Made by a program: the position numbers and the translations under genes. From the IMG/VR virus record IMGVR_UViG_2529293038_000015: a stretch of DNA of 12,302 nt; one strand, 5' to 3'. Source of the DNA: a virus. Taxonomy: Duplodnaviria > Heunggongvirae > Uroviricota > Caudoviricetes. Numbering within the stretch: the first letter of the stretch is position 1; each line of letters starts with the position of its first letter. Under the pieces are notes generated by a model, which saw only the letters and a list, made by a program, of their open reading frames with translations, was not told where the DNA came from and ran no database searches. Positions 11,694 to 12,302 of the stretch are shown here, piece by piece.

Positions 11694-12302
11694 GAGTTTT
11701 CGAAAGAGTGGCAGGACGCTAACGATAAGTGGAATGCCATGTGGGGCGTCAAAATTGAGCAGACCAAAGACGGCAAACATTATGTCGCGGGTATTGGCCT
11801 CAGCATGGAGGACACGGAAGAAGGCAAGCTGAGCCAGTTTCTGGTTGCCGCTAACCGTATCGCGTTTATTGACCCGGCAAACGGGAATGAAACGCCGATG
11901 TTTGTGGCGCAGGGCAATCAGATATTTATGAACGACGTGTTCCTGAAGCGCCTGACGGCCCGACCATTACCAGTGGTGGAAATCCACCGGCATTTTCCCT
12001 GACATCAGACGGAAAGCTGACCGCTAAAAATGCGGATATCAGTGGCAGAGTGAATGCGAACGCCGGGACGCTCAACAATGTCACGGTAAATGAAAACTGT
12101 ACGATTAAGGGCATGCTGGAGGCGACTCAGGTCAGAGGTGACTTCGTTAAAGCTGTATCCAAATCATTTCCGAAACAGGCTGGTACGTGGGGTAACACGG
12201 AAACACCAAACGGGACGGTTACAGTCACCATCAGCGATGATCATAACTTTGACCGTCAAATCATTATTCCGCCCATTATCTTTAACGGAATAGCGTATAG
12301 CT
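11694..12302 (+). pseudogene. J: Distal part of host-specificity gene J downstream of the IS4 insertion; contains a 1-nt frame disruption near 11958-11962 and continues past the window end
   Basis: Translation from 11694 ([89 protein letters not shown]) matches lambda J downstream of ..DNASKLE. After the CCC at 11959-11961 the J-like reading ([28 protein letters not shown]..) continues in the +1 frame, open to base 12302; the original frame stops at 12002. Confidence 0.85.

Follow-up and report, generated by a model that had tools for sequence, protein, structure and literature searches.

Introduction

The tip attachment protein J of phage lambda (gpJ, the central tail fibre; PDB 8iyk and 8xcj) is the closest described counterpart of the gene analysed here, which carries the same set of Pfam families, is collinear with it and likewise lies after gene I. 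Unlike lambda J, the J gene of the 12,302-nucleotide stretch of DNA deposited as virus record IMGVR_UViG_2529293038_000015, which will be referred to as the window, is present in three pieces, comprising codons 1-846 followed by an IS4 element, codons 847-935 followed by a frameshift, and codons 937-1049. Its last ~88 codons, moreover, lie off the contig. The gene belongs to the lambda gpJ family, as shown by its domain content, its collinearity and its synteny, and reads as non-functional in its deposited form.

A prophage of the same family is located at 1.07-1.08 Mb in E. coli E2348/69 and shares 98.6% identity with the window across 10 kb. The annotation of this finished genome marks both the tape-measure gene and the J gene as 'frameshifted' (NC_011601.1, 1072810-1075865 and 1078256-1081970); the lesions, however, lie elsewhere, e.g. 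a missing A in the tape-measure gene at the window-equivalent position 4380, and the E2348/69 prophage carries one private indel per 40 private substitutions, compared to eight per 23 in the window.

Two further known phenomena bear on the locus. One is the site-specific insertion of IS4, with which the element in the window shares the 18-bp inverted repeats, the 13-bp target duplication and the transposase domains; it represents the first lesion of J and is separate from the frameshift, which falls in a C run. The other is the homopolymer-length consensus error of draft assemblies, an error of the flow-chemistry type. The single-base indels of the window resemble such errors in that all of them are run-length changes, clustered, nearly free of accompanying substitutions and recurring at other positions in sibling drafts, whereas the affected run in J comprises only 4 bases.

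Results and Discussion

A lambdoid tail module on a draft contig

The window is the entire contig AIFB01000003.1 (GCA_000249195.2), part of a draft genome of E. coli DEC2C. The strain was read from the protein names (EHU50563.1 being ECDEC2C_0236), and accessions AIFA-AIFZ are drafts of the DECA collection. The contig carries the tail module of a lambdoid prophage with the gene order Z, U, V, G, T, tape measure, M, L, K, I, J. According to the Pfam families of the gene calls, J is situated downstream of Z-U-V-G-T-H-M-L-K-I, an order also found in the annotated prophages of 55989 and E2348/69. The contig begins within a Z-like tail gene and ends at position 12302 within J, ~88 codons before the stop. 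Both ends sit in sequence common to other lambdoid prophages, which suggests a repeat-limited assembly. The last base, 12302, is a T and thus the DCE7 allele (Tyr), not the allele of SCU-172 and PhiR49_1 (Asp). At the junction of G and T (1930-1990) the lambda G/GT slip motif GGGAAAG is absent, and the end of G reads CCGGAAAAGTCCTGA.

The deposited J gene does not form one uninterrupted frame, since IS4 is inserted after codon 846 and a frameshift occurs at codon 936. The J gene in the record is a pseudogene, or a mis-called J. The region comprises the following features:

7718..10255, + strand: J codons 1-846 (N-terminal part), up to IS4; the ORF stop TAA (10256-10258) lies inside the IS4 end
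10243..10255, + strand: left copy of the target-site duplication CAGCAAACTGGAG, 13 bp
10256..11680, - strand (transposase): IS4, 1425 bp, split into ORFs of 212 aa and 171 aa by the changes at 11102, 11123 and 11146
11681..11693, + strand: right copy of the target-site duplication CAGCAAACTGGAG, 13 bp
11694..11960, + strand: J codons 847-935 (EFSKEWQ...FLKRLTA), in the same frame as before IS4; Phage_Tail_Tip (PF09327) region
11959..11961, + strand: C3 run, C4 in intact J; the frame-switch point
11961..12002, + strand: out-of-frame tail of 13 residues with premature TGA at 12000-12002
11963..12302, + strand: J codons 937-1049 (...IFNGIAYS), frame offset -1; includes the start of Ig_GpJ_C (PF12421)

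J is interrupted by a genuine IS4 insertion

The element in J ends in TAATGCC..GGCATTA, has 18-bp terminal inverted repeats and sits between the two copies of a perfect 13-bp target duplication. It encodes a transposase with the domains Nterm_IS4 (PF13006) and DDE_Tnp_1 (PF01609) and is 99.65% identical to the canonical annotated IS4, the differences being one substitution (11355) and three indels within 45 bp. J is inactivated by this genuine insertion after codon 846.

The distal J segment lacks one base in a C run

Downstream of IS4 the window reads GGCCCGACC, with a C run of three bases at 11959-11961 (positions 11950-11969, gcctgacggc ccgaccatta). The run consists of bases 2 and 3 of Ala935 (GCC, 11958-11960) and the first base of the expected Pro936 (CCG), so that Ala935/Pro936 appear as GCC CG in the window compared to GCC CCG in intact genes. 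The upstream J frame, in which codons start at positions with mod 3 = 0, stops at the TGA at 12000-12002, and the ORF 11739..12002 yields an 87-aa frameshift product. The downstream J-like frame has its codon starts at mod 3 = 2 and is open up to the end of the window. The shift at Pro936 falls within Phage_Tail_Tip (PF09327) and 5' of the receptor-binding Ig_GpJ_C (PF12421).

Alignments to related J genes clearly demonstrated a single missing base. The closest intact J genes, those of E. coli DCE7 and SCU-172, are 99.5% identical to the window over the 622 bases following IS4, and the only gap falls in the C run, which is CCC in the window and CCCC in both relatives. Alignment to the J gene of 55989 showed the same lone gap, and in all 40 phage matches listed, including that of the infectious phage PhiR49_1, 621 query bases corresponded to 622 subject bases. 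Besides this gap, the distal J segment shows no further sign of decay.

A repaired J was obtained by removing IS4 together with one copy of the target duplication and by adding one C. It forms an open frame of 1049 codons that is 98.2% identical to J of PhiR49_1 and collinear with lambda J (93.6% identity, 1047 aligned residues). Lambda J carries LKRLTAPTITSGG at residues 930-942, positions identical to those in the repaired J. Pfam searches with the J fragments detected FNIII-A_GpJ, Phage-tail_3, Ig_J, Phage_Tail_Tip and Ig_GpJ_C. Repaired residues 847-1049 gave hmmscan matches to PF09327 (9.7e-35) and PF12421 (1.7e-11), and residues 847-1043 of chain J in PDB 8iyk align to this segment with E = 9.5e-103.

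The first-pass annotation had placed a break of the J frame in this C run, with a stop at 12000-12002, and had expected CCCC in intact J. The frame reading and the homologs (DCE7, SCU-172, 55989, the 40 phage matches listed and lambda) agree with it on each of these points, as they do on the lambda-J-like nature of the continuation in the other frame and on the conclusion that the receptor-binding end could not be made from the sequence as written even if IS4 were removed. Only its label '+1 frame' is inexact, since a one-base deletion requires an offset of -1 (= +2), and this is what the downstream frame shows.

The three-base version is confined to one contig

The C3 version was found in none of the 1,791 complete E. 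coli genomes that contain the segment; the best match to a 71-bp query was 98.6%, equivalent to one gap. Likewise, an exact 34-mer carrying C3 had no match among the GTDB species representatives. At the protein level, a lookup across 153 billion gene positions placed the 87-aa frameshift product on a single contig, and the IS4-truncated J product of 846 aa is also confined to one contig. Of the hypothetical repaired C-terminal products of 276 aa, one is present on four short contigs. Lookups with the K and I proteins led to sibling DEC contigs, none of which represented the orthologous locus; their prophages are paralogous, E2348/69-like or of other kinds.

The contig carries an excess of private single-base indels

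Compared to its close relatives, the contig contains eight private single-base indels, all of which alter the length of a run of identical bases that is 1 to 5 bases long in the relatives:

3566: GG to G, in the tape-measure gene, which is split into 2269-3588 and 3591-5324
6055: G to GG, in gene L
6153: T5 to T6, in gene L
6156: G4 to G5, in gene L
11102: T4 to T5, in IS4, splitting the transposase
11123: CC to C, in IS4, splitting the transposase
11146: G5 to G4, in IS4, splitting the transposase
11959: C4 to C3, in J

Three of these indels lie within 45 bp in IS4 and three within 101 bp in gene L. The private loss in the tape-measure gene changes GGGGCGGTCC to GGGGCGTCC and was detected in 0 of the 1,299 complete E. 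coli genomes with the segment. In gene L (5663-6364), the three +1 insertions garble ~33 codons before the frame is regained, and the gene is called as an intact one of 233 aa. A 381-bp L query differed from E2348/69 by three extra bases and zero substitutions in the window, and among 15 billion proteins essentially none clusters closely with the L protein of the window. In IS4, the G4 variant is present in 18 of 2,563 complete-genome records and the T5 variant in 1 of 2,576, and none of the complete genomes contains the combination of all three variants. The three indels that split the transposase are probably artefacts as well.

Private changes were counted on a five-way alignment of the window, 55989, E2348/69, DCE7 and PI7. 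Positions 1-10135 of the window showed 4 private indels and about 22 private substitutions, the latter mostly in the mosaic middle of J. With IS4 and distal J added, the total amounts to 8 indels and 23 substitutions; outside the mosaic part of J, 8 indels stand against about 5 private substitutions. The corresponding numbers of indels and substitutions for the finished relatives are 0/86 (55989), 1/40 (E2348/69), 0-1/14 (DCE7) and 1-2/186 (PI7), and comparing 8 vs 23 for the window to 2 vs 326 for the finished relatives gave a Fisher p of 5e-8. Assuming that indels make up 10% of mutations, the probability of observing at least 8 indels among 13 events is 8e-6. Given the number of private substitutions, natural mutation would be expected to leave between about 0.5 and 2.5 real indels, and since eight were observed, most of them are evidently technical. 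The spectrum is unlike that of natural mutation and typical of homopolymer-length consensus errors.

The same anomaly was found in sibling DEC drafts, which were reached via the I protein of the window and compared with the finished E2348/69 genome. The E2348/69-like prophage on AIFD01000008.1 carries 7 private indels vs 4 substitutions outside recombined patches, and the one on AIEX01000023.1 carries 2 vs 4. These indels lie mostly in homopolymer runs, are clustered (e.g., 2073, 2078 and 2098; 9085 and 9091) and break tape-measure and J genes at positions other than those affected in the window. Pooling the three DEC drafts resulted in 17 indels vs 13 substitutions (p = 4e-19 against the finished genomes), which points to a project-wide consensus problem in the DEC drafts. 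A paper of the same year from the same centre describes 454 Titanium sequencing with Celera assembly, but of other strains.

Origin of the frameshift in J

Based on the sequence comparisons, a homopolymer-length miscall in the draft consensus is the most likely cause of the J frameshift, and the indel at 11959 most likely belongs among the technical ones. The consensus would then be one C short in the C4 run across Ala935/Pro936, while the bacterium itself would carry no mutation. Read literally, the sequence would leave the J frame, add 13 wrong residues and end at the TGA at 12000-12002, and the central tail fibre would lack its C-terminal ~200 residues, among them the receptor-binding domain. 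Low-quality stretches or the co-assembly of the strain's ~98%-identical lambdoid prophages may have contributed. It counts against a miscall that the indel at 11959 is isolated, lying outside the dense indel clusters, and that C4 is a short run. Apart from this isolation, nothing distinguishes it from the other seven indels.

Alternatively, the missing base might be a genuine private deletion of strain DEC2C caused by replication slippage in the C4 run. It would then be a neutral second lesion of a gene that IS4 had inactivated beforehand, and would belong to the ordinary decay of a defective lambdoid prophage. We regard such a deletion as plausible but less likely. IS4 with its perfect 13-bp duplication truly interrupts J, and selection on distal J is therefore gone. 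It is also consistent with the isolated position of the indel, with the presence of frameshifted tape-measure and J genes in the finished E2348/69 prophage, and with the fact that single run-length variants of IS4 do occur in some complete genomes. A real deletion, however, would stand amid zero private substitutions across the same 622 bp, and the IS4 copy is only one substitution away from the canonical element, so that the insertion appears to be of recent date and decay would have had little time to act. Furthermore, the C3 variant was present in no other genome or assembly searched, the indel-to-substitution ratio of the whole contig is irreconcilable with a natural spectrum, and the sibling drafts show the same indel anomaly.

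The consensus might also be chimeric, with reads of at least two ~98%-identical lambdoid prophages of DEC2C having been merged, in which case distal J and its indel would correspond to no single locus. Several related tail modules do exist in DEC/EPEC1 genomes, the L/K segment being found at 3 places each in E2348/69 and DCE7; sibling DEC contigs with 96-98% identity to the window are known, and the contig both starts and finishes within conserved tail genes. Nevertheless, we consider this very improbable, because both IS4 junctions and both copies of the duplication fit together and show one and the same rare A allele (CAGCAAACTGGAG), and because single real loci exist to which the distal segment is 99.5% identical. 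A chimeric consensus would in any case be one form of assembly artefact and not a genuine rival to that explanation, and if it is counted in, the probability of a miscall rises slightly further.

Returning to the miscall, the first-pass annotation had described the C run as a second disruption of J. This holds for the frame as written, which is indeed broken; as a second biological lesion it is less likely than an assembly miscall, since C3 is unique, seven further private run-length indels occur on the contig and the sibling drafts behave alike. Because J was already broken by IS4 after codon 846, the frameshift would be without functional effect, be it artefact or real, and it is for the same reason irrelevant to the biology of the locus. 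Whether an artefact or a pseudogene lesion of the ordinary kind, it is nothing new. The practical consequence concerns annotation: in at least three contigs of the DEC project, private run-length indels are in large excess in the tail genes, and frameshifts in DEC drafts that lack read support should not be taken as evidence of prophage decay or pseudogenes.

Recoding and phase variation

The position of the shift in a homopolymer and the open downstream frame reaching the contig end might suggest a site of recoding or phase variation, i.e. programmed frameshifting, transcriptional slippage or an on/off switch of the receptor-binding end; nothing else argues for it. Functional homologs, including those of lambda and the infectious PhiR49_1, are all in frame with CCCC, and no length polymorphism of the run was detected in 1,791 genomes. 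The switch point ACG GCC CGA CCA offers, with G GCC CGA, no slippery heptamer of the type X XXY YYZ, an Rfam scan of the window yielded no match, and the upstream IS4 already separates the distal segment from the start of J. Phase-variable contingency runs are typically 7 or more bases long and length-polymorphic among relatives, and transcriptional slippage or phase variation would need a run far longer than three C's. We therefore rejected programmed frameshifting and phase variation, given that a slippery motif is missing, the frame change is not conserved and the run comprises only 3-4 bases; their probability is negligible.

It is hardly more credible that C3 is real and that distal J is still expressed, either by infrequent -1 slippage at GCC-C or by internal initiation 3' of IS4. 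Such expression would provide a free receptor-binding J fragment that could act, for example, in superinfection exclusion by receptor masking, an idea supported by no observation.

A recurrent IS4 target and the mosaic structure of J

The 13-bp J site after codon 846 (CAGCARACTGGAG) has been hit by IS4 in at least three genomes. In E. coli FDAARGOS_536, the element occupies the same site of J but is inverted relative to the window, and the prophage concerned is a different one, most of which is deleted. Contig CAXNQR010000605.1 of GCA_964203955.1, one of the four contigs with a repaired 276-aa product, contains IS4 at the same site and in the same orientation, together with an intact CCCC run and the duplication allele CAGCAGACTGGAG; due to this different allele, its insertion may be an independent one. 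The site thus looks like a recurrent hot spot of IS4 in lambdoid J genes and a recurrent route to J inactivation. IS4 is known for its strong target-site specificity, which fits the repeated use of this site.

Upstream of IS4, at 9295-9298, a compensating pair of indels is present in comparison to 55989 and E2348/69 (GGA-AGTGGC against GGGCAG-GGT), located within a patch of clustered substitutions in J. As this patch is common to sibling DEC contigs, it represents a genuine mosaic (recombined) segment and not an error.

The receptor-binding end of J (12090-12302, residues ~980-1049) departs from lambda (KAASAAFPRQRESSVDWPSGT) and matches the type found in PhiR49_1 and 55989. Judged from this sequence, the receptor specificity of the J protein is probably not lambda-like.
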